DNA of 63,320 bases, filler included, from Folioceros fuciformis (lineage: Eukaryota): assembly GCA_049999805.1 (NCBI GenBank). It is 8 parts of 8 records of this genome, joined end to end, with 100 filler letters (N's around TTAATTAATTAA, not from the genome) between each part and the next. Parts side by side here need not be neighbours in the genome. Positions count along the whole stretch, not along the records: positions 56,211 to 61,437 come from JBNGIO010003242.1; 7 more parts are not named here. One strand, given 5' to 3'. A program made the position numbers and the translations under genes. Under the pieces are notes generated by a model. That model was not told the origin of the DNA. It saw only the letters and a program-made list of their open reading frames with translations, and did not search any database. This document shows positions 16,851-63,320 of this stretch, one piece after another (the first letter of the stretch is position 1; every line of letters begins with the position of its first letter).

Positions 16851-16950
16851 NNNNNNNNNNNNNNNNNNNNNNNNNNNNNNNNNNNNNNNNNNNNTTAATT
16901 AATTAANNNNNNNNNNNNNNNNNNNNNNNNNNNNNNNNNNNNNNNNNNNN
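16851..16950. other. Assembly gap with artificial TTAATTAATTAA linker (also 18614-18713, 37181-37280, 41208-41307, 46809-46908, 56111-56210, 61438-61537)
   Basis: N44-TTAATTAATTAA-N44 repeated identically seven times. Confidence 0.97.
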
Positions 16951-18613: not shown

Positions 18614-18713
18614 NNNNNNNNNNNNNNNNNNNNNNNNNNNNNNNNNNNNNNNNNNNNTTAATTAATTAANNNNNNNNNNNNNNNNNNNNNNNNNNNNNNN
18701 NNNNNNNNNNNNN

Positions 18714-19266: not shown

Positions 19267-20321
19267 ATTAACTTTCAAGTTACGTCTGCATCCGGCACAG
19301 CCTTCCACGGTACTGCGCTGACACAAATCTGGCCACGCAAAGCATTACCTTTGCAGCTCTGCACATCTTACTCCTCCCCTCATGTTTTCAAGTAATCTGG
19401 CCAACCTGACCTCACAGCTAAAAGACGGCTTTGAACGCTGTGATGTTCTACAGATGCATTATCAGACAAGTATGGTAGCAGGCAAGCAGCAGTCTTTGTT
19501 GAAAGCGCTCCTCGAAGGAGAATATCACCTGTGGCATCAAAACAAGTCTGTCCTGATTCGCACCCGGCGTGATGGCTACCTTGTTCGTTGCTCATTGCAA
19601 GGCACCAGCAGCTTCTCGAAAATTCGTCGGCCGCTAGACTATCTCATCCACGGTCGTCATTGTGATGCTGGCTCATAGAAACACATACAGTACCTACTAC
19701 TCCATGGCTAATTACAGCCCGTGTAACAATTTTCCGTGCAATTTCTACCACCAATATAAATGTGACGTTGATCATTCTCGATGATCGACCGACATCAAAA
19801 CAAAGGAAATTCTCCACAGTGGATGATATTGTTATGGATACCTTCCTACCTACCTCTATGCTTTTCTCAATTTCTAGATCTTAGATTATCCCTATATTAT
19901 CTAATATTTCATATTAAAACAAATAAAAGATCACAACTTTCAATAGGAAGTAGAGATAGAAACGAGGAGGAGAGGAGGAACAACTTCATAAATGGCAAAA
20001 ACAATTGATATTTATTTACTGTATCATTCAGAGATATCACTGCATATTAACAGACAGAGGTCAGCAACCGTTTGGAAACGATGTGGCGATCGTGAAACGA
20101 ATTTCATAGGCTATCGAGCATCTTGTGAGTCTTCACGCTTCACGATCGAAATCCGGGTGGACAAGCGTGCATGCGCTGGGACGTGAGACGGCTTCAGAGG
20201 ACAATGTTGGCTCCGTTTGAGACGTCTCAAAGAATCATTTGTGTATGTGCCTGGTTCCTCGTGCGTGTGATGTCGCAAGCAGCTGTGCTTAGGGACTGTG
20301 CTTGAGAAGAGCTTCAAGCCC

Positions 20322-22979: not shown

Positions 22980-23620
22980 GTATTGCCGCCCACATTTAGC
23001 TTGAGCCATTTAAATTTGCCCAATGTTGAATGGCAAGATTACAGGTTAGAGTTAGAGAGATGAACTGTAATACGAGAGAGAAAGTGCCCACTAGTGTTTT
23101 GGGAGCGATTGTGAGAACTATGCACATCTTTAAAGCATATTTTCCAAACGGTGATCATGAAGCTCGACAAATCTCGAACTATTTTTCAATCACCAACGCT
23201 GCATAAAGGGCCCAGTGTGGCCGACGTATCCTAGGATGGATCATCAATCCAAGTACGCAATCGGCTTTGTAGCATGCACGAAGTCAGTCGATGAGCTTAA
23301 TTAAGCTAGCGCATGAAGCTCCACCGTGGACAGCTAATCGACCGACAATGCATGCAACGAGTCGTGATAGCAGCAGTCGAAAATTCTGGTGCAAGAAACG
23401 AGTATTAACAAGTAACAATGCATGTGTACGTGGGCGTACATCATAAGAGTCTCGTCTCAACGACAGGGAGACACAGGTGACCTTGTGTGATGTGAAATAA
23501 TAATATCATCGTTTCGATTTGAGACGTCTCGTCCAGACCTGCAGGTGAGACGGGGAGCGTCTCGCATTGCTGCTGGCGCGGCCAGGGCCGCGATCGGATC
23601 GACCTGCCGCACCTGCAACC

Positions 23621-26139
23621 ATGACGACATTGAATGTTATAGCTCCTGGGAGCGGCTATGATGCGGCTACAGGGATCTACTCTAGCAAGCTGTCTGCGGT
23701 GGCGCTGCCGGATGATGCAGAGCTGGGATTGGTGGACTACCTTTTTGCAACCTGCGCCGGCCGGGCGCCAAGAGACAAGCTGGCCGTGGTGGACGCGGGC
23801 TACGGGACGCAGGCCACCTACCAAGAGCTGGAGGAGAGGGTGCGGGAGTCTGCGCTGCTGCTGGCGGAGCTGGGAGTTGCCAAGGGCCGCCAAGTGCTCA
23901 TCGCATGCCACAACTGCCTTGAGCTCGTTGAGATCTTGTTCGCTTGTCTGCAGTTAGGCGCCGTCGTCATCCCTGTCCCTTACCCGGACTACCTGCGGGT
24001 GGCGCCTGCCTTGGAGAACGATCTGTTGCATTGCAATGTCCGGGACCCCGTCTTGTTTGTCACCAATGACGCAATGGCGTATCTGTTCCGCTGGGACAAC
24101 AACGAGAAGCTTCCCAATCTTCTCTTCGGCGTGAAGACGCTCATCATCGGAGCGCGATCAGCAATGCCAGAGATCCAGGACAGTATGGTGCGGCGATCCG
24201 AGATCGGACCTGAGCAGTTCGTTACATGGTCGGAGCTGCGTGCTCGCGGGCCGGTTGCAAAGCATGGTGAGGAGAGTGGGCGGGCCCGGGAAACTGTGCT
24301 GCAGGATGACGCTGCTGTGGTGGTCATGACTCCGTCTGTTGTAACCGAGAGGACCTCGAACGGGAGAAACGAGTATCGGGACAAGGGAGCTGTTCTGACG
24401 CATCGGAACCTCATTGCGTTTGCCACCATCTACTCTGGTAACCCGCTGAGTGGATCTGCTGAGGATGATGTCTACCTCTGCTGCGTGTCGCTTGGCCATC
24501 TCTATGCGATTGCCGTCTTGATGATCGCGCCGCTTATGCGGGGGGCCACGGTTATCACCTGGAACTTGGACTACGACGCTCAGGTCGGGAAAATGCTTGG
24601 TGCTTTGCTGGATTTGCAGCCGCAGCTCACGCATGTGACTATGTTGCCGTCCACGCTGTACGAGATCGTGGCCAATGAGCGTAAGCTGCAGAACATTGAG
24701 ATCCGGCCTCCATACGAGCTGGTGGACGATTTGAGCAGGTGTGACCTGCCGCCCCTCAGGCAGTTTGGCTGTGGGCCTGCAATTGTGCCGCTGCGGACTA
24801 TACAAGGCTGCGCTCAACGCTTTCCTTCTGGTGGTCATCAGTTCGTACAGGTAGTGCCTCCCCTCCCTTTGTAAGGTGTTTAAGATATTTCTTTTGTTCG
24901 TCCTCGTTGTTCTGGGCTAATCTCATTCTACACGCGAACATTCCTGATCCAAGAAATGTCAGCAGGGTTATGGTTTGATTGAGACAACTCTCCTGGGAAC
25001 AACATTCCCTGCCGGCGTTCACTACAAGCCAGAGTATCTCGGATCTGTCGGCCTGCTTTCGATGAACTTCGAAGCCAAGATTGTGAATGTCAAGGCAAAG
25101 CCCAGTGAGATGTCCCCATACTTTGCAGGCGAGCTGTGGTTGCGTGGTCCCGGAATTATGGCAGGTAGAGATTTAAACTTTCCTCCAATTTTTTCCCCTC
25201 CTTGCTTGCTAATCATTCCATGCTGTATCGGTAGCTGAAGAGGACACTATGATGATATGCTTCTCAGCACCTATAGTTGCTAATCCATGGAATTTTTCTT
25301 CGACAGGCTACTTGAACAATTCCACGGTAAACGTCGATGCTCGGGACGCCGACGGCTGGCTCCATACCGGGGATCTTGGCTACTTCAATAAGGATGGCTA
25401 CCTCTACATTGTCGGCCGCATTAAAGAGATCGTCAATTGCAACGGTTTTCCGGTGAGTATTTTTGAACCAGTTGCAGATTCCGTGGATTTAACGAGATTC
25501 TTTACCTGTCCCTTGCAACTAGGTCTACACAACAATTTTCATGGGTGGCACTTTTGTCACTGTAGGTTTCACTTGACGAGCTGGAGGAAGTGCTGTGGCA
25601 CAGTCCTGATGTCGTCAATTGTGCCGTCATAAGGTGCTGACTCGTTCCCCGACTTTTGCCTACAGTTCACTATTATGCATATTCCAGAACCATCTTAGAA
25701 TCTAAAGTACTTGTAAACTTCCCGATTGTCATAGTGAAACCAAGCTAATAGAGCTCTTGATGTATGCAGCTACCCTGATGAAAGGAAAGTGGAGGCTCCG
25801 CTAGTCTTTATCGAAACTTTGACTCCAAACCTAAACTACAATGGTGTGTCGTGGTTAGAAGGTGATCAAATCGATTACATTAAGGAACGCGTAAGTTCCC
25901 TACCCCTTCCAAAGTCATTGTTGAGGCGTTTAAACTCCTTCACGTCTTTCAACTTGCTCTTTCCACCTACCCTTCCCAATTGATAGGTAGCGAGCTTCAA
26001 GGGACTTGGCCAAGCAGCGCAAGTTTCAAAGTTTCCAACTCTTCCTCAGGGGAAAGGCCTTCGAAGGGCTTTCACCAGTTTTGCACAGCATACGAAAGTC
26101 TTGCACAAGGGTCCTAAGCACTTGATGCTGGAAGCTTAA
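23621..26139 (+). CDS. Divergent tandem 4CL-like paralogue; exons 23621-24850, 24966-25164, 25307-25452, 25566-25633, 25770-25890, 25987-26139
   Basis: Same intron positions as the upstream gene; QGYGLIET, GELWLRGPGIMAGY, WLHTGDLGYF, IVGRIKE; P-loop degenerate; no PTS1. Confidence 0.85.
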
Positions 26140-29750: not shown

Positions 29751-29962
29751 AGTTACAAGCTAGACATAAAGGGGGTTAGGCCGCTTTCTTGGCGTTTCGC
29801 GTTGCGGTTGTTCCCTTGCCACGGGGTTAGATGGACTTCCTTTTTTCTTTTTATAAAGTCTTAACGTTCTCGCTCGGAAAGGTTCCATCAGTTCGGACTT
29901 GCATCGTGCCGGGAGACATGAAACTCGAGGAAAGCAAAAAGACTGTGTCTTAGTGCAGGTGC

Positions 29963-32020
29963 ATGCGGAGATGGGCAGCATGGGCCCAGCTGGAGCGTTG
30001 GAGCTGGGTTGTGTGTTCAGGCTTGCCTGCACAGGCTTGGAGCATTCCTCTGCCCTCCTTGGCTTCCTGGAGTGTCGCACTTCATTCACACGGCCTCTTG
30101 GGGCAACGGCTTCTCTGGACTACGAAAACATGGACTCCTGGCATCGCAGGTCTTGCGGGCACAGGTTGCGAAATGCTGGCTTCTACATGGCCGGATGGTC
30201 CCGGCGTAAGTGCGGGGACTGTGAACAAATTCTGCGAGCGAGGGCACGCTTGTGAGGCTGTTGAGGCTCTGGGAGCTCTGGTGCAGTCTGGATGTCTTGT
30301 CTCGCAGTCTCTTATCTACGCTGTCCTGAGAAACTGTGTCGGTAAGAGGGAGCTTGTTCTGGGTCGCCGGGTGCATGCTCTGGCAGTGCAGCAGGGGTAT
30401 GGATCGGATACGTTCCTGTGCAACCACATCCTCCGAATGTATGCTTTTCTTGGCATGTTGGAGGAGGCCATGCATGTCTTCAGCGTGGTGGCGGAGCCGG
30501 ATGTCTTCATGTGGTCTTCCATGATTTCTGCCCATGTTAAACATGGGCAAGGTGAGCAGGGCATAGCCTTGTATCGTCAGATGCGAAGGTCGGGTATGGA
30601 GCCGGATGGGCATGTGTACGTAGCAGCGTTGCAGGCTTGTGGCAGGGAAGCAGACTTGAGAACTGGGCGACAGGTGCACGTTGATGTCATGGCTTGTGGG
30701 GTTGAGCCTGACTTGTTTGTAGTGAACTGCCTGGTGGACATGTACGCAAAGTGTGGCAGGTTGGATGATGCTAAGAGAGTTTTAGATGGGCTTGGTAGGA
30801 AAGATGCGGTGTCATGGAATGCCATGATAGCAGGATATGCCCAGCAGGGCAGGGGGGAAGAAGCGCTTCATCTGTACAGGACCATGAAGGATGAAGGCGT
30901 GGCTGCACCTACTTCTGTGACGTACGTCAGCCTCCTTCAGGCCTGTGCGAGCGTGGGTGCGGGAGGTTTGGAGGCAGGGAAGGAGCTACATGCTCAGATT
31001 GATGCCGAGGGGCTGCTGGCTGATGCAGTTGTAGGGTGCAGCCTGGTAAACATGTATGCAAAGTGCGGCAGCATCGAGGATGCTCGCGGTGTGTTTGCCC
31101 GACTCGAGCGGAAAACGTTGGTCACTTGGAATGCCATGATGGCGGGATATTGTCAGCAGGGGATGGGCCAGGAAGCTCTTCTCGTTTACCAAGCCATGCG
31201 AAATGAAGGCATTTCTGCTCCAGATTCTACAACATTTGCCTGCCTTCTGCAGGGATGTGCAGATGTAGCAGCTTTGCATCCGGGAAGGTGGCTGCATGTC
31301 CAGATCGAAGAACATGGGCACCATGAAGACCCGTTTGTAGTTATCAGTTTGATAAACATGTATGCAAAGTCTGGGAGCATGGTGGATGCACAACAGGTGT
31401 TTGATGGGTTGCCTGAACCAGACAGTGTCGCCTGGAATGCACTGATTGCAGGTTACACCCGGCAAGGGGACAGTGAAACAGTCTTCCAGCTGCATTGCAG
31501 AATGCAAGAGCAGAGTGTACTGCCCGACAGCGTTACATTTCTCAGCGTTCTCAAAGTATGCAGTCATGCGGGCCTGGTGGACAAGGGGCGAGAGTACTTC
31601 GAGGCAATGAGCCAACACTATGGCATCACTCCAACCACGGATCACTACACATGCATGGTGGACATCCTGGGTCGGGCAGGTCTCCTCCACGAGGCTCTAA
31701 GGGTGGCAAGGAGCATGCCTGTACCCCCCGACACCGCAGTGTGGCACACACTTTTGGGTGCCTGTCAAAAGTGGAGCAACGTGGAGGTGGGACTCCATTC
31801 CTTCAAGGAAGCCCTGAAGCTGCATGACAAGGATGCTGCAGCCTATGTGTTGATGTCCAACATATATCGCAGAGCCCAGATGTGGGAGGAGGCACAGAAG
31901 TTGCAGAGGAGGAGGAAAGCGATCGGGGCATGGAAACAGCCAGGCCAGAGCTGGTGGGTAGGCATAGACGGGCTGGTGCACGTTTTTGTGGTAAGGGAGT
32001 TAACGCCATCTGCACGTTGA
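29963..32020 (+). CDS. PLS-class pentatricopeptide repeat protein with E/E+ extension and no DYW (candidate organellar RNA-editing factor)
   Basis: Repeated LVDMYAKCG..A..VF / VSWNAMIAGY motifs; HYTCMVDILGRAG; YVLMSNIY; KQPGQSW; single intronless ORF of 685 aa. Confidence 0.93.
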   Translation: MRRWAAWAQLERWSWVVCSGLPAQAWSIPLPSLASWSVALHSHGLLGQRLLWTTKTWTPGIAGLAGTGCEMLASTWPDGPGVSAGTVNKFCERGHACEAVEALGALVQSGCLVSQSLIYAVLRNCVGKRELVLGRRVHALAVQQGYGSDTFLCNHILRMYAFLGMLEEAMHVFSVVAEPDVFMWSSMISAHVKHGQGEQGIALYRQMRRSGMEPDGHVYVAALQACGREADLRTGRQVHVDVMACGVEPDLFVVNCLVDMYAKCGRLDDAKRVLDGLGRKDAVSWNAMIAGYAQQGRGEEALHLYRTMKDEGVAAPTSVTYVSLLQACASVGAGGLEAGKELHAQIDAEGLLADAVVGCSLVNMYAKCGSIEDARGVFARLERKTLVTWNAMMAGYCQQGMGQEALLVYQAMRNEGISAPDSTTFACLLQGCADVAALHPGRWLHVQIEEHGHHEDPFVVISLINMYAKSGSMVDAQQVFDGLPEPDSVAWNALIAGYTRQGDSETVFQLHCRMQEQSVLPDSVTFLSVLKVCSHAGLVDKGREYFEAMSQHYGITPTTDHYTCMVDILGRAGLLHEALRVARSMPVPPDTAVWHTLLGACQKWSNVEVGLHSFKEALKLHDKDAAAYVLMSNIYRRAQMWEEAQKLQRRRKAIGAWKQPGQSWWVGIDGLVHVFVVRELTPSAR

Positions 32021-37180: not shown

Positions 37181-37280
37181 NNNNNNNNNNNNNNNNNNNN
37201 NNNNNNNNNNNNNNNNNNNNNNNNTTAATTAATTAANNNNNNNNNNNNNNNNNNNNNNNNNNNNNNNNNNNNNNNNNNNN

Positions 37281-41207: not shown

Positions 41208-41327
41208 NNNNNNNNNNNNNNNNNNNNNNNNNNNNNNNNNNNNNNNNNNNNTTAATTAATTAANNNNNNNNNNNNNNNNNNNNNNNNNNNNNNNNNNNNN
41301 NNNNNNNGCATTTCTTGTAGACGAATC

Positions 41328-46660: not shown

Positions 46661-46908
46661 CCCCTCCCCCCAGCTGATTGTGCCATAGTTACAACTGGTG
46701 TAGCACAGCAAGGGTAGTTCTGAACCTCCAAAGTTTGGGGTAGTAGTTTGTTTTGGTTGAAAAAGGGTTAATAGTGGTATGGTTTGGTTTTCTTTTTCAA
46801 CTTATTTTNNNNNNNNNNNNNNNNNNNNNNNNNNNNNNNNNNNNNNNNNNNNTTAATTAATTAANNNNNNNNNNNNNNNNNNNNNNNNNNNNNNNNNNNN
46901 NNNNNNNN

Positions 46909-48514: not shown

Positions 48515-49995
48515 ACGCCGACTACATTTCACGCTTGCAGACTGAGGAAGTGATTCGGAACTAGGAGGATGAGTTTCCCGATGAAACTCTGTTCGCGACA
48601 TAGATGGAGGACGAAGCGGCCGCGCCCAACCAGAAACAATGTGAAGATGAAGGCATAGCAGGAAATGAGAAGGGGAGGGTCGGTTTCATCAGACCCACTT
48701 GCCAAGAGGTGTTTGAATTCCTGGAGACGGGCAACATCCCCATCGATTTATCTAGACAACAGTAATAGGCGTCTATGCATTATGCCTAACCGTTCATCTG
48801 TAATGGAAATGAATTGTATCGCGTAGGGCCCGATGGAAGGGAAAGGCTGTGGATAACAGAGGGAAGGATCGATCGAGTGCTTGCAGTGTTGCATGAGGAA
48901 GAGGCAGGTGGACACTTCGCTGCGCATATCACCTGCAAGAAAATTTTGGAAACAAGATACTAGTGGCCAGTCGTATGCTCAAGGACACCAGGGAATTCAT
49001 CAAGAACTGCGATACGTGTTAGAGGGTGGTAAACCAACTGCGACCACGCAATGGCCTTTGGTCCCGATTCTAGCTTTGGCTCCGTCCGAGAAATGGGGAA
49101 TCGACTTCGTGGGGCCTATCCAGCCAGAAACAAGGATCCGATAAAATCAGTAAATGCTTGTGGCCACATACTACTATACGCGCATGGTGGAAGCGTAACC
49201 CCTTCAGGTGGACACAACTCACGTGGTGGCCAAGTTTTTGTTTGAGCAGGTGATCGCCCGCTATGGATGTCCCTTAGAACTGGTGAGCGATCGAGGTACA
49301 CACTTTGTGAACGAAGTCATTTACCATCTAGCTGAGTACTTCAATGTGCGACACCAAAAGACGACCCCTTACAACCCGAAAGCCAATGGACTGACGGAGA
49401 AGGCGAATGGACTCTTGTGCCGGATTCTTAACAAGCTCACTGTGGAGTATGCTTACGAATGGGACCTCAAGCTTTATTCGGCAGTATGGGCATACAGGAC
49501 AGCGGAAAGGATCACCACGCAGAAGACGCCGTACTACCTCACCTATGGGCATCATTCTGTGATGCCAGTAGAATTTGTTAGAAGTTCCAACTTTACGTGT
49601 TCAGAGGGAGGAGTGCATGTTTGTGGAGGAGAGTCGACTGGAATGACTAGTAAATTTCGTAAGGCACACTAAAAACAAGGAACAGGCTAGTACTAGAGGC
49701 TATGCAGGAAATGCAGGTGAAACGAACGGAGTGGTATGACCACAAGTTGAGGAAGCAGGAGTGGGTGACACTCGAGGACTTAGCCCTGCTGTATGACAAC
49801 AGGTACATGCATTTTCCTAGGAAACTGCATCTGAGGTGGATGGGGCCGTACCGGGTAGTTGAGGTCTTTGCAAACGGATCCATTTCAATTGTAGCAGTTG
49901 GATGGGCAACTGTTGCCAACCAAAGTCAACGGTTGGCGAGTGAAGAAGTATTACGCCTAGGTTGGCGAGGGCACCAACAAATGAGAAGGGGAGTA
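48515..49995 (+). mobile_element. Ty3/Gypsy (Athila/Tat-like, non-chromovirus) integrase remnant plus PPT
   Basis: H...GGHF; KWGIDFVGPI; LVSDRGTHF; TTPYNPKANG..EKAN; RWMGPYRV; KVNGWRVKKYY; PPT GAGAAGGGGAG before TGTAGAGG. Confidence 0.92.
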
Positions 49996-52900
49996 TGTAG
50001 AGGAAAAAATATTTGCGAACCCCCTTCTTGAGTGACAAATATGGTGGACTTTGGTTTTTTTTGTGAAGTAGAGGAGAAAGCGGCTTAGGTTGAGAATAAA
50101 ACAAGGGTATTTGTACACAAGACCTCCTTGGACCATGGGTTTTTGGAGTGACCCAGTAGTCAGCCAGTTGTCCGGGGTAGCTAGTTCGTCCTTGGGTCTT
50201 GGTGGTGGAATGGCCACTAGGGAGCCTATATATGTAGAACCCCCTGCACCCACCCCCTTATATTAGAAATATGAACTGACCGCTAGGTAAGGCATGTCGT
50301 GGACTTAGGCTAGAAAATAAGGACGTTGTGACTCAGCAACGGTGGTGGAACATGAACCACCGCCATGGAAGGACAACGGGCGGTAGCGCTCCAGGCGGTG
50401 GCGGAACTAGAATGACCCGACAGGAGAAAAAACCTAAGTAAGGGCTAGGAGTGTCCAAAAGTGATTTCGAAAAGGGAGCGCAACCGAGGAGTCGGGGAGC
50501 GGAAGTGGTGGACGGGACGTGAGTAGGAGACAGGCGACGTGAGCAGGAAGAAGCAAGCGCAGCAGCTTCTGGGCGAGACAGGGGCAGCACAGGTGTCGAC
50601 CAGCCAAGGGGAAGGCGCGGAGTCGAGAGAAGGCTGAGAAGGATGAAGTTGGAGAGGTCCGTTGCAGAGCTGGCGCCGGTGATGAGGAGCAGGTCCTTGC
50701 GCCTTAGGTCGAGGTTGCTTTCTTGCCGAATATGGACCACTGGAGAGCCAGAGCCGGCGGGCTGGTGGAAGAGCTAGGCCTCGGGTTCATGGCCCAAGGT
50801 CGGAACCACGCAGCTCCTACCCTGGTGCAAGAGTGTGCTCGACGCCTGAGAAACTCGGCGGAGGAAGGAATGCGAGGAAACCCATAGGACTGGAGCGCGG
50901 ATCTGGTACGGACGATGTATGGGCGCAGCCAGGAGGAGGTAGGAGGACGGGCCCTCGAATCGATGAAGAAACGCAGCACCACGGCAGCAGCGGCGGCGCT
51001 ATTCAAGGTGGGAATCGGGAGAATAGCCAACAGTTGGTTGGCAAGGGAGATGGTGACGGCCCATCTCATGGGGCTGGCGAGGTGGTTCCGGTGCTTCCTA
51101 TAGAACAGGAAGCAAGACTACCTCTCTAATCAGATGCTTTTATTCCTGCACAAGGTCGTCAAGGGTAGTCGGGTTGATTGGGGAAAAATCTTGTATGATC
51201 GATTGAATGAGGAGAGGTAGAACCTGACCTCCCCCTCTCCCCGCTCATTGATGATCTCCCCGTTTCTTGTCCACTTGTATTGTGACGCTAACATCTTACC
51301 TGAGATCGAAATTGTTGCCTCGCTGCATATGTGGAAGCCAGTCAGGGAAGTAAAATGGAAGCCGGAGGAGACGAAGGAAGAAGCTGACTCTAGCAGTTGG
51401 GAATCGGGAGCCATAGGGAGCTCAAAAGAGGAAGCCCCGACCAACAGGAAGCGGAAGACAGGAGCAGGGCAGAAGACCCCTGCCAAGAAGAGGAAGGTTG
51501 GTGGGCGAGTCGCCAAGGTGACGGGCGAATCAGCGCAATAGGAAGTCGTCCAGAAACTGGCCGACACAACACTGGAGGCACCTCAGGAAAAAGTGCCAAG
51601 GGAGGAAGCGGGCCCGGCTGAGGTGGCGGGTGGTTAGGGCAAGTTCAGGAGGAGGAACCCTTTCCAGGATGGGAAGGGATTTTCAGGGGCATCCCTCTGG
51701 TGACCAAGCTGCAAGCGGAGGATTTGGCCACAGTACGTGTGCTGCTTGGGAGGCAGATCCTGGACAGGAGGTGGCTTCTGGGGGCGAGCCACAGCAGGTG
51801 GACTTGCCAGGCCTGACTACGGCCATGGTGTAGGCACAAGCAGAGATGTTGGACCAAGCTGCCAAGGCATTGACCTGGTTGAGTATGCAGGGGCAGAAGG
51901 AAGCAAAGGCGCAGGAGAAGATGACAGAGGCTGAGGCAAGTCGGCAGCAGCTGGAGGAGATTTGGCAAACCCTGAGTGCAGCTGTGGGGGAAAATATTGT
52001 ACCCGGGGGTACCGTGAGGTCCAACCAAACCCTCTATGTCGTTATAGCACTGGGATTCCATCCCTAGGGAATGATTTGTGTCAAATAACACAGGTTTCTT
52101 CTAAAAGTTGACTCTAACTTGGGTCAGGCTTTACCTACCTCCAGTTCCACTACCTGCTAGATCAACTACCCCTACCCCTTAGCGGCTTAGCTACTTTGGC
52201 CTGAAGTTACCACCCCCAAGACTCACTCAGCTACCAGGGTAGGGGTATCTACCACTACCAGCCTTCCACTACTAGTGAGGCCTCCACCACCGGTAGTCGA
52301 TTCCACTATCGGGGTGGGTCCCACCTCAAGTTTCTAACTAATACGCGTTGTTTTGGTTATCACCGCGGGTTCCTACTTAACTTCCCAAGTAGTAAGTCAG
52401 AGTTACGTGACTCCCCACTCAGACAATCAGGTCCCACGACGTCACTCCCTTTGTTGCCGCTTGCACAGCACTTCCATACACACCGGGTCCTACCCAACGG
52501 ATAAATCTCACGGTCACTCTCACCCCCTAGCTACCGTCGCGGCCCTTTGACAGTCACTCAACACACTCTCATGCCCCTGACTCTGGTCGGCTCTTCTCAC
52601 GGCTCTCACACACACACGGAACACTTGTCACACGCTGTTATCCAACGTACAAATACCCCCTTCCAGTACCTTTATTAACCACGGCTCCTCCACGGACTCT
52701 CAACCGTTCCAAGCTCTAGGCTCTCTCAATCATCCCCCACACACACTCACCCGCGGTCAACCCACACACACACACTAATGCCTGTGGAGAAAGCAAGAAA
52801 CGTGGGTGCCAGTTTTTGTTATTTGTAACACAGCTGGAGATGTTTTCTGAGGTTGCTGAACTGAGACTACATTGAAGGGAGCACATTGATTCAACGGGAG

Positions 52901-55900
52901 AGTATTGTCATGTATGTTAGCGAGTGATTCAGCTTCAAATTGTACCCTTGCTTTTTACTACCTGTCCACAACTAAGAAGGAGTGGGTGAAGTATAACTTG
53001 CTCCGTAAGACAACTGCTTTTCAGATCCTGATTGACCATGAGTGTAAGGTGTTTTTAAGGAAGTATCGTGATGTGCAAGCAATCCTTGAGCGGGATGTTT
53101 TTTTTCTGCCTAGAGACATAAGAAATTTGCAGGCAAGGTTGGATTCCAGGGTGTGGCGATTCCATGGAAATGATGAGGTGAGTGTCAAGCTATGGATAGA
53201 TGTCCATAGAGAGGAGGTATTTTTCCCTTTGCCAGGAGAAGAACTACATGCCAAGGATTTTATGTTAGACATCCAAACAGATTTTCAGTTACAGTCTATG
53301 TTGCGTTGGGGTCACAAGTCAGTGATATGTGTGGATGCTACATTTGGCACCAATAAGTGGAAGTTCCAGCTATTCACTCTATTGGTTTTTTACGATCATT
53401 TTAACGGTATCCCTGTGGCTTGGGTGATTACCAGCAAGGCTACGGCAGCCAATATTTCTCACAACAGCTCCTTCCACCGACTCAACAACATTTGCATACA
53501 CACCCACACATAGGTACCTCAGCGTACTTCCACAACTTCGTCACCATTCCAACTCTGTCACACATCATTCACAGCCCCCTTCCCTCAGTCAATAGATCAG
53601 GAAGTAAGGGAGGGAGAGGCACTCCCTCCACTCCGCGATCGGCGGATTTGCCTTCCTCCCCGCATTCTCGTTCCTTCACTTTTCCTCTACCACTTGCACT
53701 TGTTCTCTCAGTTCCTTCATCCACTCATTTCTCATTCTCTCGTCACAACACCCCTTCTTTACTTGCTCATTCCACCGTTCCACATTCTCGCTCTTCTCAA
53801 CGCTCTTCTCCTCTCAATAGTTAAAGCGCGGTCCAGACGTCAGGGAATAAGGGAAGCGAAGGTCGCTTCCTCTCCGCAATCGGCGAATTCATCCCCCTTC
53901 GCCTTCAACGCAACACACAACGAGTTAGAACCAGGCATAGCAGGGAAGTTGTCCTCCACTCGGTGAGGGTTCTCCTCCTGATTCATCCCTAGAGCCTCCT
54001 CGTCGAGGAGCAACCAAACCACGATGCCCCCACCCAGGAACGATGCGCGCACTCGCCTACTCGGATCTCCCTATCCGGCAGCGGTTGTCACCAAGCCTCC
54101 TCAAAGTCGGGGATGTCGATTTTTCGCTACGTTGTGAGGTGCCAACATGCCTCTTGTACATGCTGGTGGCGGGTCTGCTTCTGCCATTAAGTCTGGTCCG
54201 CGGATAGGAGGTGCTCTTAATTATGAGCGGCACGTGGTCCAAGAAAAAGCATCACCTAAGATCCTATAGGATTCTATCCGAGGATGCATTCACTTTCGCC
54301 TATTTTTATCGCCGCGCTCGCCTTCCGCCTGGCTATCGCGCTCCTCCTCTCGCTCTCCCGCCTCTGGCTCTCCTTCCCCGCTATTGGTCGAGCAAATCCT
54401 CCCAGAGGATTTCCACCTCACTGCTGCTGCTACTGGACGCTCCTGGCGGCGGCGTAGGTGGGTCCCATTGCGGGGAACTCCTTCCCTCCTCCCGTCGCCT
54501 GCTGCTGAGGACAAGCACCGGCTCCCATTTGACCCACGCCTGCGCCTCCTCCGTCAGCTCCACCAAGACTGCCTCTGAGTAGAAATGAGGCAATCCCCAC
54601 ACTCGGCAACAGTAGTAGAAGGACCCCTTGTGGGTCCTCAGTTGTAGGCCGTAGCCCCTCGTCCCTCCTAAGCCCACACGCACATATACAATCAACTTCA
54701 GCACACGGGCTCCTTCCACATAGACGCCAGGCACAAAAGTGGCCTCCTCCTCATAGCGCAACACAATCCAACCCTCTGTTGCAAAGGAAGCGCTTACCCC
54801 CTCCTCCTGTGGGCTACTTCGGGCTCTGAGTGCGTGCAGTGTTCTTGGGTGGTGGCGTGCGAGGTTTCTTTGCTTTGCGACGGGTGGTTCCGGGTACGAA
54901 TCGGGAGGAGGCTCCTCACCGAGTGGAAGGCAAACTTCCCTACTATTCATGGTACTTTGCGTTGTCTGTCGCAATAGGAGCGACGGGGGACGAATCCGCC
55001 AATTGCGGAGTGGAAGTGGGCACCTACTTCCCTTATTCCCTGGCGTGCCACCTGCTCTTCAAATAGCGAGTGAAAAGTGAGTTAAGGTGAAGGCGGGCTG
55101 CGTGTTGGACTCGGAGGAGGGAGACGAATCCGCCGATTGCGGGGTGGAGGGAGATTCCATCCCTCCCTTATTTCCCGATTGTTGGTTGCGACCCGATCCT
55201 AGTCGCTGAGTAAGTGTTCGAGTGAAACTAGGTGAGAAGGAGAAGCGAGTGAGTGAGTGTGTGAGCCGAGACGTGAAGGTGAGAGATCGCGGTGTCTGCA
55301 GGGAGGGAGGCGAATCCGCCAATTGCGGAGAGGAAGGAGTGTCTCTCTTTCCCTTACTTCCCGAACTGTTGACCGTGAATGTTGAGTGTCTGAGAGAATG
55401 TTGAGGCGGTGACGAAGTTATTGAGAAATCGCTGAAGGAACTTTGAACTGTGGGAAATATTGTCCCAAGTCTGTGATATGAGAGATTGTCGAAAGGCTGC
55501 TTGGGGGTCATGGATGTTGCTGAGGACGAGTGTGGGCTGTGAGGAGTGACTGTATGTCGGAATCGGCATGTGTGGAAGTGTTGTGTGGTTGTGGGTGTAA
55601 GGTGTGTACACCCGTGGAGTCAGACTGTCTAAGTGTGTAACTGTGGGGTGTTAAGTAACTTCGACCCGCTACCCTGGGAAATCGGGCAGAAACCCCCGAG
55701 TAGAAACTCGCAGTGATACCAGAAACAACACGTGTTAGTTAGGACGTTGGGGTGGGACCCACCACGGTAGCGGAACCCCCTGCTGGTTGTGGAGACCCCT
55801 ACCGGTCGACCGTAGAGGAACCAGTAGTTGTAGAGACCCCTACTTGGGTGGTGGGGTGAGGTCTGAAGCCACGGAGTTGAGTCTGTGGTAGCTAGGCCAC

Positions 55901-56097: not shown

Positions 56098-56405
56098 AGG
56101 ACCCCCACCCNNNNNNNNNNNNNNNNNNNNNNNNNNNNNNNNNNNNNNNNNNNNTTAATTAATTAANNNNNNNNNNNNNNNNNNNNNNNNNNNNNNNNNN
56201 NNNNNNNNNNTAATGAAATAGTTAAGTCACCTAAGGTTAGGTTGACTATATGCTAGTGGTTTTATGAACAGTTATAACCACTTACATAACTTTTGCATAT
56301 ATGCTTGATTTTCCCATGAACTTAATAACCGTTTTTCATTTTCTGCCGTGCTCATGTGCTTTCGCTCGCACCCGCTCGTGCCCCCTTGAATGATCCACAC
56401 TCGTT

Positions 56406-59400
56406 TTAGAGCTCATGCATGGAAAAGGCAAAACAGTCCCTGTACTTAAGCAGCAAGTTTTGAATGCGGTCCTGTTGCTTCAGACCGAGTTCCGAGCCCT
56501 TCTTCCAAGGGAAATTAGCTGCAGACAGCTTGGGTGTAGCTCCTGGATCCTCCTTTTCTGCCTTGGCTTGATCAGATGCTGAGTAAACAGTACGTGATGC
56601 CAATACTGCGTACTCCACCCCCCCAGCATCTAGCCAGAAAGGCAGCTGTGTGTATTCTGGGAATGGGAGGTGAACAACATCTCGAGGGCACATGCTAGCA
56701 AACAAGCCTAGGAGTAGCATGAGAGTGACCTGAGTGTGCAGCAAAAAGGCAAGGCACAAACTCACCAACCATGTGATGGCATGGAGGTCCATGGCTCATC
56801 CTAGAGTGCCCTTGTGCTGCCGATTGGTGATAGTGGGGGCCGCTGTACTGTGGGTTTGAAAACCCATAAGTCGCTCTCGCTCCTCAGTTGGTTCTTCCCA
56901 CCACTGCGTTTCAATATTCAATAATAAGCCAGCTCCTTCTCCCCTGTAAGCGAATGAACCTGGAAAGCTTACTAGCGTGGGCAACGTCTGCCTTGGTTGA
57001 CCTGGAATGTTGGTCTTGAACCAAGGGGCTTTCTCACTGGCCATCACAAGTCGTGGCTGATGGTAGTTCTCCAATACAGTACAAAGTTGCGGCCCTGCAT
57101 CCCTACTAGTGTTCCAGAGAGCCAAGTCCAACACGGAGACAGGGACCAAATTGGTCCAGTAGTTACGAAGCCTGTGGGCATAGCTACCCACCTGCACAAC
57201 ATCCATGAGGAATGGTGGCCCTGCAAAATGTCGCACAATGGCCATATCCTGCTGCACCTGTGGCCGGGTATCAAACTGGGCTGGTGTGTTCTCGAGCAGA
57301 TATGCACATTGAGGGTTACTATCTTGTGCCCATGCCAAGATTTGTTGGAGATCTCTAAACAGACCAGAACGTGGGTCTGTCAATCCTGCACCTACCCCAG
57401 CTTGAGAGAAACCTTGGCATTCCTAGCCAACTATGACCATGTCGATGGGGCCCAAGGTTTGGATGTGGCCCTACTGTATACATTGGACGTCCTGAGGTAA
57501 GGACATGAATGTATTAGCTAGAGCCTCAGCTGACAGTTGCTGTGGAAAACGATGTTGTAGACCCTGCAGCCAAAATGCAGCAATTTGCCTGGCAATGGGG
57601 TCTTTGTCACAGTAAAGGTACCTTTGAATGCCCAAACCTGTCAAGAGCAAAGCTTCGAACCCGGTACAAATACCACCAAATAGTTCAACGACTGTAAGGG
57701 CTAGCGCAGCCGGTGCCCATATGATGACAGTATTGTACACATAAGATGTGGGACAAGATGACAGAGTCTCGGCTTCCAACAATTGTTGCACCTTGCTGAC
57801 CTGCTCTTGTGCCTTGGTCAGCAATGCCTCTGCCTGCTCTAGACAGTCAGGCTGAACTAGAGCTCGCTGCAAATTGGTACACCTCACTTGGGCCTCTACA
57901 ACATTGGTCTCTAGATGCTTGTCCACTCGGTATGTGTCTTGGACAAGCTCCACCACATTGCTACTTTTGATACCAACTACAGCCGGGCTTTTCACCAAAG
58001 TGGTTACATCAACCTCCACCCGGCCATGCAAATCTAACGGCAGATGTGCAATGCAACAACCTCCTTGCTTCCAATAAGGCCTATAGAAGGCATGCTCAGT
58101 CCAGTTATCCACACCAACTCTTGGTGGAAAGAGGAACTCTTGCCCCAACAGCAAATCATAGTTGGTGGCTGTGGTTACCAGGCAGGGCAAGGACAATGTC
58201 ATGGCATCTGGCGTGCCCGAGTTCAAGGTGATGGCCAGGGGTTGGACTTTCTCACCACAAACTGGTTCAATAGCCCCGGATGCCGTCCTGATGTTCCAGG
58301 GCGATGTATGCAATGCATTACCCTGAAGATGCAACCTTACAGCCAGAATCTTCCCAACGAGTACTGGTTGGGCTCTCATGTCCAGTAACACCACTTTGGG
58401 TGCATACCCATTAATTGTGACGTGCCCACCACAATTGTCAACAACTGCATTGCTGACACGAGCCTGCAGTCGATTGGTGGACTGCACTTGTGATTGGCTA
58501 TCAACTCCCTCAGCTAGCTGTACAGTGTAAGAGCCATTGCAACGACTTGGTGCAGTCTACCCATCTGTAGAGTGTGACACCGCTGTTGGCAACACCCATT
58601 GTGAAGTGTATGCTGCACCCAGGCTAGGGTCAGCAGATGCAACCGTGGCTTCTGCAGTTTGAAGAACTTCCTTCAGCCTGCTATGTGATGCCCATGTCCT
58701 GCAGTGTGAAAACTGGCACCTGAGTTAGCTTGGCAGCCAGTTGTGTGACTGTGGTGGCTTGAGGTAAGATATACACATGCTCTGGTGTTGGCATGCTCTG
58801 GCTAGCTGTTCCACACGCAGCGTTGAGTGCTCTTGGCCTCGTACCGGAATTGCAGACCCCTGTGGCATCGGGGAAAAGGACTTTGGCATGGTAGCCCTGG
58901 CCCCTCGATTCCTGGTGACAGGCCCTAAGGCAGGTGCTGTTGTTCCCATGACCACCTGTAAATTCTACCTCACCCATGTGGCTGGCAATTCAACCTCCAT
59001 GCTGTTGTGACCAATTCTGTCAACCGTACATACTTGGTGTGTTGGGCCATAATCCTCATCCTCTTGTACCGGTACCAACTTCACTGCATTGGTTGGTTTG
59101 CAAGAGCAGGTGATGCTGGACAGGTTGGCTGTCAAGACTCCAAGTTGAGCTGTCATGGCGGCCATGGAAGCCTCAAGGGAGCTAATCTTATCAGTAGTGG
59201 CGGCTGCCTTAGCCTTGGCCTTGTCACGTTGCTGCTTACTGCGGGACAACCCAACAGCGCTCCTCGTTCCTCCTGCTTCCACACTCGCAATTGTGGCTCC
59301 TGTAGATCCCATGGTACCAATCTTCTAGTATCTTTGTTCGAGGTGCTTTTGGAAGCACACAGTAACCAGTGTCCATTCTTCTAGCAATGGGTGCAGTAGA

Positions 59401-59959
59401 GTCCCTCCGGAGGACACTTGCATGCAGGGGACATGTGCTCAGGGCTGCCACAATTGTTACACATGGCTACCACTGCTGCCGCTGGAGCTACCTTAACTGG
59501 CTTAGTCTGACTAGTCTTGGCTCCTGCACCTGTGTTAGCTGCCCCCTTGCTAAAGAACATGGACTGGTAGTGCGTGAAGGCCTTGAAATGCCAAGAGGCA
59601 TAGGCCAAGAAGGCTACCTCCTTCTTCTCAGCTTCTTCATGCACTTGCTCCAAAGTGTACTTGTCCCCATATTTGTCCACCAAGGACGTAACCAGCTGGA
59701 AATGAAACAACGGGTCTCCTTCAAGTGCAGTCAAAAACCTCTGCGCTGCTTCCTGATTTGTTAACATCCTTGTACCTTCCCTTAATTTTTGTAGCCTCCT
59801 GAAGCACATCTGGACTGTCTCCCCCTTTTTGTGAGCAAAGGCAGCAAGTTTTGCAATTTTCTCTGGGGTCTTTAGTGGGAATGCCCTCTCCAAAATAGCT
59901 AGGAACTCCTCCACTGGGTTCAAGTACTTGCAGGTGTGTAGAAACTCCTGCACACCAGT
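56406..59959 (-). mobile_element. Ty3/Gypsy-type retrotransposon remnant: gag (CCHC), aspartic protease, C5-DNA methyltransferase, pre-RT linker
   Basis: Gag with CNNCGSPEHMSPAC and CTHC knuckles; protease VLLDMRAQPV..YDLLLGQEFL; DNMT motifs; QQDRIQNLLLKYRDCFAFSMHEL is typical of the segment just before Gypsy RT. Confidence 0.85.
56760..57700 (-). pseudogene. Dnmt3-like C5-cytosine methyltransferase domain embedded in the retrotransposon polyprotein
   Basis: Motif I VVELFGGICTG; IV GPIDMVIVG*ECQGFSQAG; VI YLLENT; VIII AHRLRNYWTNL; IX ERERLMGF; X TLG*AMDLHAITWL; one reading frame with 3 premature stops. Confidence 0.88.
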
Positions 59960-61437
59960 TGTCGCAGTGACGCGATTAGCACAACCGTACACACAATACA
60001 AAGTTGCATTAAAAGAAGATCACACACACAATAGTTCTTGGTAGGTTTTTGTGCACGCACGGTGACTCGACAGTTATTCGTGAAAAATGACTTCTAACCC
60101 TAACTACTTACATTTAAGCTAGGTATAGAATTTAACCCTATATAAAGAGGGCCGAATAAACATATCCAACACCCCCACTTGAGGTCCGACTTATACAGTT
60201 CCTAATCCTAATGACGCTCCTACGCTCCACACTCCTCCTGATGCAGCGGCAGCTGGAATTCCTTATTGCAGCACTCTCTTAGGTTATCACCATACTTGAT
60301 ATTGTCACTGCAGAACTTGGAGCTGCCCACAACGCGCTTGCTGAAGATGATCACCCGCCGCCACGCTTAAACCCAGCTGCCAGGCTTTCCAGTACAATTT
60401 AGGCAGAGGCCACCTTCTCTTTCTCTACCTCGCAGCTCTTAAGCCTGCATCAGTGGCGGCAGCTCCCAATCGGCACTAAAAACGGCTGCACACTTGTCTC
60501 CCGCGGCGCCGACTGGGCTCCGCCCTCCTTCATCTGCAGAAAAACAGGCCTTTATCTGCTGCGAGTAAGGATCGATGCCGAGTCCTCACCTGACACTAGC
60601 TGGAACTTCTACACAGCTGATAGTCTGGAGGTGGATGAGGCGTAGACAAGATGTTTGATGCTACTTCTCACAGGCGGCTATGCCCAGCCTAATTGCATGT
60701 TTATTATGCAGCTCTCTAGGCAGGGCTTTGGTCAGTAGGTCTGCAGGGTTCTCAGCTGTAGAAATATAGCTAATTGCCATCTGACCATTGCTCACCACTT
60801 CTCTGATAAAATAGTGATGTATTTCCATATGCTTCACTCTGGAGTGGAACACTGGGTTTCTTGTGAGCGCTATGGTGCCTTGGTTGTCACAGTGAAGGAT
60901 GGTGGCTTTTGACTGCTTCATACCAACATCAGATAAGTTTCGCCTAATCCAGATTGCTTCTTTAGCCGCTACTGTTAATGCTTTGTATTTAGCTTCCGTG
61001 CTGGAAGTTGACACAGTTGCCTGCTTCTTGCTTGTCCAGGCAATCGGACCTCCGGCCAACAAGAACACAAAAGCTGAAAGCGACTTCCTGCTGTCCAGGT
61101 CAGACGCCCAGTCTGAGTCATAGAAGCCCTTCAAGGTCAACAGCTCATCCTCTGTCCCGGCATACGTGATTCCATGCGTTGGTGTCGACTTCAAGTACCT
61201 GAATGTTCTTTTTACTTGGCTCCAGTGCTCAGGATGTGGTTTTTCCAAGAATTGTGACTGAATGCTAACAGGGAACGCAATGTCTGGTCTTGTGACATTT
61301 GACAAGTAGATCAAAGTCCCAACAGCATGCCGATATGGAGTTCTGGACATCTCTTCAGCTTCCTCAGGTGACATGGGATCTGAATTTTTCGTCAGCTTCA
61401 GCCCTGTGGCTAGAGGAGTGGCACATCCATTCGCATT
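59960..61437 (-). mobile_element. Copia 3' end (RT/RNase H 60661-61437, PPT, 3' LTR 59960-60171) inserted into the gag of the DNMT-Gypsy
   Basis: YDSDWA; WTSKKQ; FHSRVKHME; ADLLTKAL; minus strand AAGTGGGGG|TGTTGGATATG...CTGCGACA. Confidence 0.88.
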
Positions 61438-62029
61438 NNNNNNNNNNNNNNNNNNNNNNNNNNNNNNNNNNNNNNNNNNNNTTAATTAATTAANNNNNNN
61501 NNNNNNNNNNNNNNNNNNNNNNNNNNNNNNNNNNNNNTCTTCGATGAGATTTGGGGACTTCACTCCACTTTCCCGGCACCTCGTTAGTAGCTTTCGACCA
61601 TGTGAAACCTAGCAATTGCTTGTGCTTGGGGGAACTCAAGCCTCCAAATAGTACAGTGGTTGTGATTTCACTTGCCCCAGCACCATGACTCGTATCCACC
61701 AGGGTTTCCACATGCTGCATTGCTAGTCTCTCTCAGACCCAAGGAATGCCTTACTTGTTCACCAATGCTTGCACTAGTTGCTGGTTGTCCCTGTGCACAA
61801 CCACTGACTGCGGTTCGTGTTGACACGAACAATGATGTGTTTCGAATTCCACCAACAACATGGAAGAGACCCAACAGTAGACGAAAGGTATATTTCTCCG
61901 TCTTTTCCATTTTTTTTCACGTCAATACACATATCCTAGCATTAAAATCTAGTTGGTTTGCTTAAAAAGGAATTTCCTTTTGCACCTTTTTCGAGGATAA
62001 TGAATCAAAAGTTCAAAGGCTGAAAAGCA

Positions 62030-62617
62030 ATGGCTGTCACACGACAACAATATGCCAGAGGAATGCAACAATTACCTATGATGGAAGAGAATGAAATGGT
62101 TGAAGAGGGAGCGGAAGAAATAGACATTAACCGACGTCAGCGACGCATGTTTGCTAGGATGCTTGTTTGTTTTCAGCAAAAGGAGCGGCAACTAGTAGCA
62201 TTGTCACATGAAGGAGTCAGCATGGAGCAGCCATACCAAAATTCAACAGCTGTTTTTGCTCGACAATGGGTGAATGCAGCTTGCATCAGGATGTCTGATC
62301 TTGGTATGACTGTGAAGCAAGCACAACAATGGTTGACAAGGTGGCAAGGACACAGTGCACATGTTGTGATAAAAGAAGATGAGTGTGGAGGGTTGGAAGG
62401 AAAGCCAACTACGAGTCTAGCAGCTAGAAGAATAGCAAATGTAAATGTGGCATTGGTGGATAATCGTGCAAGGCATGTTGAGATAGAAGGGTTTGCACCA
62501 GCAAAAGTACTTATGGATATAGGTGCACAACGAGTGTTGATAGGAAGGGGGGTGGTGGAAGCCTTGCAGCTATATGGAGACAAGTTGAAACCATCAAGGT
62601 GGAACATAAGTTTGTAG
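62030..62617 (+). mobile_element. Fragment of a second Gypsy element of the same protease lineage
   Basis: VALVDNRARHVEIEGFAPAKVLMDIGAQRVLIG..L.L.G..L..S.WNI aligns with NAVVDNCGGHVTINGYAPKVVLLDMRAQPVLVG..LHLQGNALHTSPWNI at ~58290-58460. Confidence 0.75.
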
Positions 62618-63029
62618 TGCTCTGTGGAACTGTTTGATCAAAGATAGTGCTTTACTAATTGATAAAATTAATTACAAGAGGTGGGCTTTTATAGCATGTG
62701 TCTGAAGAGTTGTACCTCCTCAGTACTAGATACTAAAGGGTATGACCACGCTAGCTAAGTTACCCATAACCAACGCGGTTTGTACTTCTAACTCTCCCTC
62801 GCAAACTAGTTGGGTTATCTAAATCAAAGAACTAATAATCATTTGCCGCTATAGTATTGTATAAGTACTACGATCTTCAACTAAACTCAACTCACCGATT
62901 GTCACCGGCCGCAAGTAAGATTGAAGCAAGTGGTCTACTATAGCTTTCAACTTCAAGTAACTGAATGTTCTGTGATAAGATACGCCTCACCAAATGTGTG
63001 ACTGGTCTAGCTTCAAAAAGCTACTACAG

Positions 63030-63130
63030 TCAACCAATCCAAGCCTTTCTCTGTGGAAGCAGTGTTTAAACTTCGGCAGGGTTTTAGTTAGTATATCTGC
63101 TGTATTGTTGTCTGTGGGTACTGTGAACGA
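63030..63130 (-). mobile_element. Copia RNase H C-terminal fragment
   Basis: Minus-strand VPTDNNTADILTKTLPKFKHCFHRERLGL. Confidence 0.7.
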
Positions 63131-63320
63131 AAAAAACTTTCGGAACCCCCATTTTGAGCAACGGAATGAGCAGGTTGTAATCTTTTTTGTGAAGGGACAG
63201 GCGAATTGGCTTAGTAGGTAAATAAGACCAGGGTGTTTATGCCCAAAGCCCTCTTGGGCACCGGGGTTTGGGGTGTACTGGAGATCGGGACAAGGAGGGG
63301 GAATGAGCGAGTGCCTCCTT

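Follow-up and report, generated by a model that had tools for sequence, protein, structure and literature searches.

A decayed Gypsy-type retrotransposon fragment with a Dnmt3-like domain in an assembly of Folioceros fuciformis

Retrotransposons encoding a cytosine methyltransferase of their own have two precedents in the part of de Mendoza et al. 2018 (PMC5890265) considered here, from which all statements on them are drawn. In the charophyte alga Klebsormidium nitens, the Pol open reading frame (ORF) of a long terminal repeat (LTR) Gypsy element, KnitGypsy-Dnmt3, contains an intron-free, unrearranged Dnmt3-like domain. The repeats of this element are arranged in a DIRS-like manner, in the order A-coding-B-A-B (Fig. 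4 legend), and its acquisition is dated to ‘in the K. nitens lineage’. SymbioDIRS-Dnmt3, from the dinoflagellate Symbiodinium, also has a Dnmt3-like domain in Pol and A-coding-B-A-B repeats, but is a DIRS element with a tyrosine recombinase, and those authors regard it as an independent acquisition. Here we analyzed a stretch of 63,320 nucleotides (nt) from an assembly of Folioceros fuciformis (the window), in which an earlier note, correctly naming the dinoflagellate and Klebsormidium precedents, had recognized a Ty3/Gypsy retrotransposon with a Dnmt3-like methyltransferase in its polyprotein. Positions 56409-59968, minus strand, very probably correspond to a decayed copy, truncated at its 5' and 3' ends, of a Ty3/gypsy-type element of the KnitGypsy-Dnmt3 kind, with the Dnmt3-like domain between protease (PR) and reverse transcriptase (RT).

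This kind of element is already known, and the present case is a modest widening of its known host range. The consulted portion of a 2026 preprint (10.64898/2026.05.21.726589) lists ‘streptophytes (Gypsy-DNMT3)’ among the DNMTs borne by transposable elements (TEs). In the consulted portions of the literature searched, which included this preprint, PMC6453930, PMC10952607, PMC11982613 and PMC12344493, supplements and figures apart, DNMT3-carrying Gypsy elements are undescribed for land plants and chlorophytes. Public proteomes of Marchantia, Calypogeia and Sphagnum contain DNMT-carrying polyproteins.

The fragment and its methyltransferase domain

The fragment lies in a 5.2-kb contig of the window, 56211-61437 (the element contig). 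Its parts are listed below; motifs and the pre-RT helix were read from the translation, an asterisk marks a stop, and the motif names I-X follow what we take to be the usual nomenclature.

56409-59968, minus strand: internal fragment of a putative Gypsy-DNMT3-type retrotransposon (partial gag, PR, DNMT, pre-RT linker), cut at both ends, as placed by loose ends in sequencing runs X1-X3
59294-59968, minus strand: gag remnant, matching residues 125-345 of the relative P0041 (tblastn, 36% identity, E 1e-33); the N-terminal ~124 residues, relative to P0041, are missing
58682-59368, minus strand: linker between gag and PR; contains three deletions that shift the frame, and stops in frame at 58965-58967 and 58725-58727
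58131-58421, minus strand: retropepsin-like aspartic PR, by homology to relatives (PF13975 sub-threshold, E 0.022)
56688-57746, minus strand: Dnmt3-like C5 methyltransferase (MTase) domain by PF00145, motifs I-X in canonical order, three in-frame stops
57660-57683, minus strand: motif I, LFGGICTG
57405-57431, minus strand: motif IV, VG*ECQGFS
57285-57296, minus strand: motif VI, LENT
57156-57176, minus strand: motif VIII, HRLRNYW
56859-56882, minus strand: motif IX, ERERLMGF
56787-56804, minus strand: motif X, LG*AMD
56409-56687, minus strand: linker and conserved pre-RT helix (alignment with P0003 and P0012); family homology stops at about 56409, adjoining the TAA (56406-56408)
56424-56465, minus strand: pre-RT helix IQNLLLKYRDCFAF

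The order proposed in the earlier note, with gag, PR, a full C5-MTase and a pre-RT stretch on the minus strand, is borne out by translation and by tblastn with P0041. This independent single protein has collinear matches that confirm gag and PR, its residues 632-1213 mapping to 58691-56922 (E 2e-127), and the fragment is also collinear with P0005 and P0040 (tblastn). All the MTase motifs quoted in that note were located, between 56787 and 57683, and RT is indeed absent, the fragment being cut at 56409. Its bounds, first given as 56406-59959, needed only a small correction from the loose ends.

Seven stops fall in the pol frame (58965-58967, 58725-58727, 58557-58559, 57471-57473, 57423-57425, 56796-56798 and 56406-56408). 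Across 56406-58556, a single frame encodes in order the retropepsin-like PR, the C5-MTase with motifs I, IV, VI, VIII, IX and X, the linker and the pre-RT stretch, and is interrupted only by the stops at 57471-57473, 57423-57425 and 56796-56798 before the terminal TAA (56406-56408). The description of one frame broken by three stops holds there, but not upstream, where the first three of the seven are found. Similarly, the gag that had been announced is present in part, but off the pol frame, through deletions private to the window copy. Its first CCHC knuckle is intact (59420-59461) and the second is interrupted by a stop at 59381-59383 (regular expression and alignment).

A PF00145 search after repair of the stops had been proposed as a check. 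With stops read through as X, the domain reached 25.0 bits (E 1.5e-5), above the cut-off of 22 bits; the largest stop-free piece alone reached 16.5 bits, below it, and relatives 24.7-39.2 bits. The family-profile envelope covers residues 5-357 of P0001, the window's own read-through. When the window domain was compared to PDB with phmmer, the top 29 of 44 distinct sequences were DNMT3A/3B/3C (best E 2.6e-7), and DNMT2, M.HhaI and DRM came at E 0.3 or worse. The family profile A2, built from 22 sequences, was also run against PDB, with no DNMT1 chain among the matches listed and the following E values.

DNMT3A: E 3.8e-19
DNMT3C: E 8e-17
DNMT3B: E 9e-16
tobacco DRM: E 4e-10
M.HhaI: E 3e-8
Arabidopsis DRM2: E 1e-6
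DNMT2: E 0.04

An AlphaFold model was available for the domain of the relative L002 (L002:10025-11401), with a mean predicted local distance difference test (pLDDT) score of 74.6, and about 90 over residues 10-320. Only DNMT3A/3B/3C chains were among the matches listed by Foldseek for this model (E 1.5e-16), with template modelling (TM) scores normalised to the target of 0.74-0.81 against catalytic-domain chains. The MTase domain is thus DNMT3-like, by sequence for the window copy and by predicted fold for L002. The DRM class was rejected, given a motif order without the DRM permutation and a weaker match.

No Pfam match to PWWP or ADD domains was found in the window or in the scanned relatives, where the flanks are PR and pre-RT linker, and this points to a DNMT3-like catalytic module rather than to a host-type DNMT3 protein. 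Host DNMT3A/3B/3C of animals, and plant DNMT3/DRM, resemble the family in catalytic-domain sequence and fold, DNMT3A being the best PDB match both by profile and by Foldseek. The family differs from them by its lack of PWWP and ADD, by being embedded in a TE polyprotein, and by a motif IV that often reads E-C.

Relatives and other copies of the element

The word-indexed search for proteins of similar length gave 38 relatives out of 4,850 scored candidates, and that for longer proteins 63 out of 3,864, no Klebsormidium-named protein being among them. A protein atlas returned just a generic PF00145 cluster, in which Streptophyta is the commonest taxon, and phage clusters, none of which is counted as evidence here. 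A total of 102 proteins, P0001 included, were classed by the order of probe matches.

RNase H-DNMT-integrase order: 59 proteins
PR-DNMT-RT order: 13 proteins
domain-only pieces, order not assigned (including P0001): 30 proteins

By Pfam, the arrangement PR-DNMT-RT-RNase H(-integrase) was recognized in P0040, P0041, P0042, Marchantia polymorpha MARPO_0091s0058 (P0044) and Calypogeia fissa (P0005). Uninterrupted ORFs cover gag-PR-DNMT in P0041, and DNMT-RT-RNase H-integrase in P0042 and P0040/L002. These open relatives show the family's DNMT to be translated within gag-pol, and the MTase is part of the polyprotein, as the earlier note had argued, not a captured host gene. Marchantia P0044, Calypogeia P0005 and Sphagnum balticum P0033 all have a retropepsin-type PR ahead of the DNMT, as in the window, and are 38-57% identical to the window domain over the aligned parts. 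P0044 continues to RT and RNase H, whereas the proteins of Calypogeia and Sphagnum stop inside the DNMT or past it; all three are annotated only as hypothetical or unnamed proteins.

A second arrangement, RT-RNase H-DNMT-integrase-PHD, was found in the Ty3/gypsy polyproteins P0045, P0047, P0055, Chlamydomonas eustigma P0077 and Haematococcus lacustris P0064. In P0064 the DNMT was positioned with the family profile, PF00145 not being among its Pfam matches, and in P0077 the PHD finger is followed by an SH3 domain and a chromodomain. The DNMTs of these two chlorophyte proteins are 35-37% identical to that of the window, with full-length profile matches at E 1e-120 or better, but lie between RNase H and integrase, and the PHD finger comes after integrase. 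The streptophyte-specific lineage that had been suggested must be abandoned, since both proteins carry the same domain.

A maximum-likelihood tree was built from the 69 DNMT domains with near-full profile coverage, which omits 33 of the 102 proteins, including the Calypogeia, Sphagnum and P0041 rows; it is midpoint-rooted only, and no direction of change is claimed. The window falls in a clade of eight rows (Shimodaira-Hasegawa-like approximate likelihood ratio test, SH-aLRT, 99), together with four PR-DNMT-RT rows, Marchantia among them, and three domain-only rows. Its nearest row is P0040, at 47% identity. Throughout the 69 domains, conservation is seen at the catalytic Cys, ENx and RxR, as well as in motifs I, IX and X. 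For motif IV, most members have E-C-Q and others have P-C-Q, both forms being found in both architectures; E-C is present in 5 of the 8 rows of the clade, and the commonest forms among the other rows are also E-C.

Repeats were sought in metagenome contigs, where relatives are encoded at 550 of the 598 places matching a search pattern, and 80 loci were kept. Most of these copies are decayed: a plus-strand ORF of at least 600 residues is found in just 2 of the 80. In L002, repeat A occurs at 5663-5954 and 14511-14802, and repeat B at 14334-14509 and 14803-14978; the first copies of A and B bracket the coding region, which extends from 7188 (gag) to about 14212 (integrase), and the whole measures 9,316 nt. 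At least 4.5 kb of downstream sequence was available for 29 of the 80 loci; in 17 of them, the DNMT is followed some 3 kb further on by a pair of B repeats (B..B). For the 14 loci also having at least 6 kb upstream, a script flagged 8 as A-coding-B-A-B; inspection left 7 clean cases (L002, L010, L038, L042, L056, L063 and L066), L026 being without a second A between the Bs. Relatives thus carry A ... B-A-B split repeats in place of plain LTRs, despite a DDE-type integrase in pol.

The layout of KnitGypsy-Dnmt3 is therefore matched by the relatives of the window copy, and was seen in relatives only. This unusual arrangement, compared with the published description of that element, is the best available argument that the clade may be of the same kind. 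The two also agree in having the Dnmt3-like domain inside the Pol ORF of an element of Gypsy composition. They differ in host, a charophyte alga for KnitGypsy-Dnmt3 and apparently a land plant for the window, with relatives spanning bryophytes and chlorophytes.

Contigs of four sequencing runs were aligned to the element contig at 85% likeness or more. Runs X1 and X2 belong to a 2025 study, X3 to a separate 2017 study with the same organism label, and X4 to the study of X1, under a second organism label. None of the listed runs is recorded as RNA; X3 is possibly RNA. In X1, 166 contigs aligned (32 at 99% or more, 38 at 95-99%, 53 at 90-95% and 43 below 90%). The summed word depth, which is not a copy number, was 267-529 over 56386-59885 versus 22-112 over 60061-61437. 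Loose ends at 56409 and 59968 in X1, X2 and X3 indicate that the window copy was cut at both places; on the RT side, the loose end stays open in the pol frame and resembles, by eye, the continuation in relatives. Record 17 of X3, a contig of 9,251 nt, covers exactly 56409-59968 with 190 differing letters and 37 gap letters, and continues for 3,370 nt past the RT side and 2,284 nt past the gag side, up to about the size of the L002 element. In X4, the Copia-like flank and short DNMT-core pieces were found. The DNMT-element family is multicopy, and at least one copy joins gag-PR-DNMT to several further kb on each side. The 3,370 nt added in the X3 contig suggest RT-RNase H-integrase beyond the fragment.

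Elsewhere in the window, a second, divergent PR fragment of the family was noticed in the last contig, at 62405-62608 (plus strand), within the ORF 62024-62617. It is about 34% identical to relatives, has D-I-G as active site and ends before any DNMT; a Copia-like C-terminus (minus strand) then follows at 62987-63319.

The window copy is fragmentary, among nested TE pieces, and lies on a short contig. A host DNMT3 gene or gene fragment might thus have come to stand beside retrotransposon debris by chance, by capture in a single copy, or by chimeric assembly. This is extremely improbable, as the order and frame PR-DNMT-preRT recur in unrelated contigs and in named genomes, the 9,251-nt contig from another study spans gag-PR-DNMT unbroken, the window MTase has neither introns nor PWWP or ADD domains, and nearly all of the metagenome pattern matches (550 of 598) encode relatives. 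Host-gene capture was rejected on the basis of the collinear relatives.

The reading as a truncated Gypsy-type copy of the KnitGypsy-Dnmt3 kind has several points against it. RT, RNase H, integrase and terminal repeats are all absent from the fragment, so that its Ty3/gypsy membership rests on relatives. Its zf-CCHC match is weak and below the cut-off (E 0.042), as is that of the PR to PF13975 mentioned above, for which the Calypogeia relative P0005 gives E 2.9e-7. The class DNMT3 rests on sequence, profile and fold matches, the midpoint-rooted tree being made of family domains, and the likeness to KnitGypsy-Dnmt3 comes from layout and published description, not from Klebsormidium sequence. 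The window and most members have Glu instead of the usual Pro before the catalytic Cys, a residue unusual at this place for C5 methyltransferases. The Klebsormidium domain gave no methylation in yeast, a result called inconclusive by its authors (PMC5890265). Finally, blastn of the element contig against the other seven contigs of the window found no common repeat (one 142-nt match, 68%); as the element contig also has no host gene, assignment of the fragment to a land plant is indirect.

Decay of the copy, role of the domain and spread of the family

The window copy is a decayed, doubly truncated relic; it is no working element, has no function and cannot methylate. Stops in the MTase domain, and letters missing by alignment with the 9,251-nt X3 contig, are the following.

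57471-57473, minus strand: stop 1, TAG, falling between motifs I and IV of the DNMT domain
57423-57425, minus strand: stop 2, TAG, two codons ahead of the catalytic Cys; a sense codon in all aligned relatives
56796-56798, minus strand: stop 3, TGA, in motif X; private to the window copy
59485: 12 letters missing
59368: 1 letter missing
58803: 19 letters missing
58682 and 58684: 1 + 1 letters missing
56886: 3 letters missing

At 56798, another letter makes up most of the depth units in X1 (244.8 of 278) and X2 (166.2 of 195.4), and all of them in X3 (17.5 of 17.5). The PR triad (58374-58382) reads D-M-R, within LLDMRAQ (58368-58388), where relatives align with D-T/S-G; other contigs have a different letter at 58378, and this defect is private to the window copy. 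The listed deletions explain all 37 gap letters of the comparison. Those of 1, 19 and 2 letters sum to 22, and hence shift the gag frame (codon first base 1 mod 3) with respect to the pol frame (2 mod 3), in agreement with tblastn of P0041, which matches in frame 1 at 59422-59294 and in frame 2 at 58925-58821. By this indel arithmetic, gag and pol would form one frame in the X3 copy, as in P0041.

In the fragment, the observed over expected ratio is 0.31 for CpG, 1.60 for TpG and 1.38 for CpA; the CpG ratio is 0.58 in the whole window and 0.70 in an 18-kb contig with a pentatricopeptide repeat (PPR) gene. Differences from the X1 copies are transitions at 194 places versus transversions at 45, and the window has A/T where other copies have G/C at 121 places, versus 73 for the converse. 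Stops, CpG depletion and transition bias are consistent with an insertion that was silenced, and whose cytosines were long methylated and underwent deamination. The truncations were probably produced by nested insertions at both ends. A live element was rejected for the window copy, which has too many defects.

We propose the following scenario. In live copies, the DNMT would be made as part of Pol, and would methylate CG sites on the complementary DNA (cDNA) of the element or on its new insertions, according to the proposal of de Mendoza et al. for a TE-borne domain acting on retrotranscribed cDNA (PMC5890265, in the part considered), so that a methylated new insertion would resemble methylated host DNA. 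The window copy would have been silenced, then eroded by deamination of its methylated cytosines, and cut at both ends by insertions of other elements. Such self-methylation of cDNA or new insertions is the most likely role for the family, to which we give about an even chance of being right.

Alternatively, the DNMT-like domain of the family may not be a DNA cytosine MTase in vivo, and act instead as a pseudo-enzyme, an RNA methylase, or a DNA- or chromatin-binding module. The E-C form of motif IV, in most members and in five of the eight rows of the PR-DNMT-RT clade, and the failure of the Klebsormidium domain in yeast, are in favor of this explanation. We consider it unlikely, given that conservation across the 69 domains extends to motifs I, IX and X, to the catalytic Cys and the ENx glutamate, and to the RxR of motif VIII; for the catalytic residues and motif I, this argues for a selected enzymatic role. 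In addition, P-C and E-C forms alternate within both architectures. As for the yeast assay, human DNMT3B likewise failed in it, and de novo CG methylation was obtained in yeast with the SymbioDIRS-Dnmt3 domains (PMC5890265, same part).

As for the history of the family, relatives in liverworts, in a moss, in a plant-like assembly and in chlorophytes point to a module that is much older or repeatedly transferred, a reason to doubt that its acquisition was confined to the Klebsormidium lineage. A broader view, which we put forward tentatively and would not bet on, is that Gypsy-DNMT3 is an old Viridiplantae-wide lineage, with PR-DNMT-RT in streptophytes, land plants included, and RNase H-DNMT-integrase-PHD in chlorophytes, and that near-full-length, possibly expressed copies persist in a land plant. 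If true, a plant genome would hold many TE-borne de novo MTase genes, whose products could methylate CG sites of their own cDNA and, now and then, of host DNA. For annotation, TE copies can inflate DNMT3 gene counts in bryophyte, lycophyte and fern genomes; for methylomes, a TE-encoded contributor to de novo methylation in non-seed plants is possible. The window copy itself contributes just one dated, dead example.

Host and genomic context

The window contains seven identical linkers, N44-TTAATTAATTAA-N44 (14 runs of 44 N, paired around the 12-mer TTAATTAATTAA), at 16851-16950, 18614-18713, 37181-37280, 41208-41307, 46809-46908, 56111-56210 and 61438-61537. It is thus made of eight chained contigs, and physical linkage to the fragment exists only within 56211-61437.

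A non-seed land plant is the most likely host of the element. Chlorophytes have homologous DNMT domains in abundance, the element contig has neither a host gene nor a repeat in common with the other contigs, and the land-plant marker, a PPR-E gene, lies in another contig of the chain, all of which would suit an origin of the element contig from an associated green alga or another contaminant. We hold this origin to be quite improbable. The family, long contigs included, is present in runs of two studies with the same organism label (X1/X2 2025, X3 2017). Furthermore, the window groups with the Marchantia-containing PR-DNMT-RT clade (SH-aLRT 99), not with the Chlamydomonas eustigma and Haematococcus rows, and tblastn places its closest named relative in a liverwort, Calypogeia (42% over 498 residues). 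Proteins of Marchantia, Calypogeia and Sphagnum show that the family exists in land plants, independently of the window.

The PPR gene (29954-32020, plus strand) is intronless and encodes a 688-residue protein of the PLS class with an E motif, likely an organelle RNA-editing factor. Its best named relatives, 35-43% identical, are from Diphasiastrum, Calypogeia, ferns and conifers.

Two unrelated sequences flank the fragment in the element contig.

56211-56408, no strand assigned: AT-rich flank, reaching the contig end; no ORF, no family homology
59969-61437, minus strand: Copia-like repeat flank, with an RT/RNase H-type ORF (60661-61437) running into the contig end

Next to the fragment, the Copia-like flank is non-coding over about 690 nt. 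The flank ORF had no Pfam match at E 0.1, and the Copia call is a reading of its translation. Separate contigs of runs X3 and X4 cover this flank (59968-61367). An X3 contig omits 174 nt at 61133/61308, with GT..AG ends on the plus strand, inside the Copia-like ORF of the minus strand; the gap may reflect either an antisense transcript with an intron there or a variant with a deletion.

Further TE debris was seen at 9763-12097, 16907-17932, 49037-49567 and 52890-53513 (all plus strand), and at 60661-61437 (minus strand). It consists of Copia gag/pre-integrase, SH3-like and RVT_2 pieces, a ZSWIM/MULE-like RNase H-like piece, and a gypsy-type integrase piece just 27-29% identical to the integrase of the DNMT family. 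Two long ORFs, 20271-21641 and 23549-24874 (plus strand), contain AMP-binding domains (PF00501, E 6e-53 and 3e-32), and could represent exons from a single acyl-activating enzyme gene or from two. Lastly, a 32-nt motif is present three times within 54985-55336 (88-91% alike, spacing 134 and 186 nt), with inverted matches at 53866-53903, and the surroundings of its three copies are GC-rich and non-coding.

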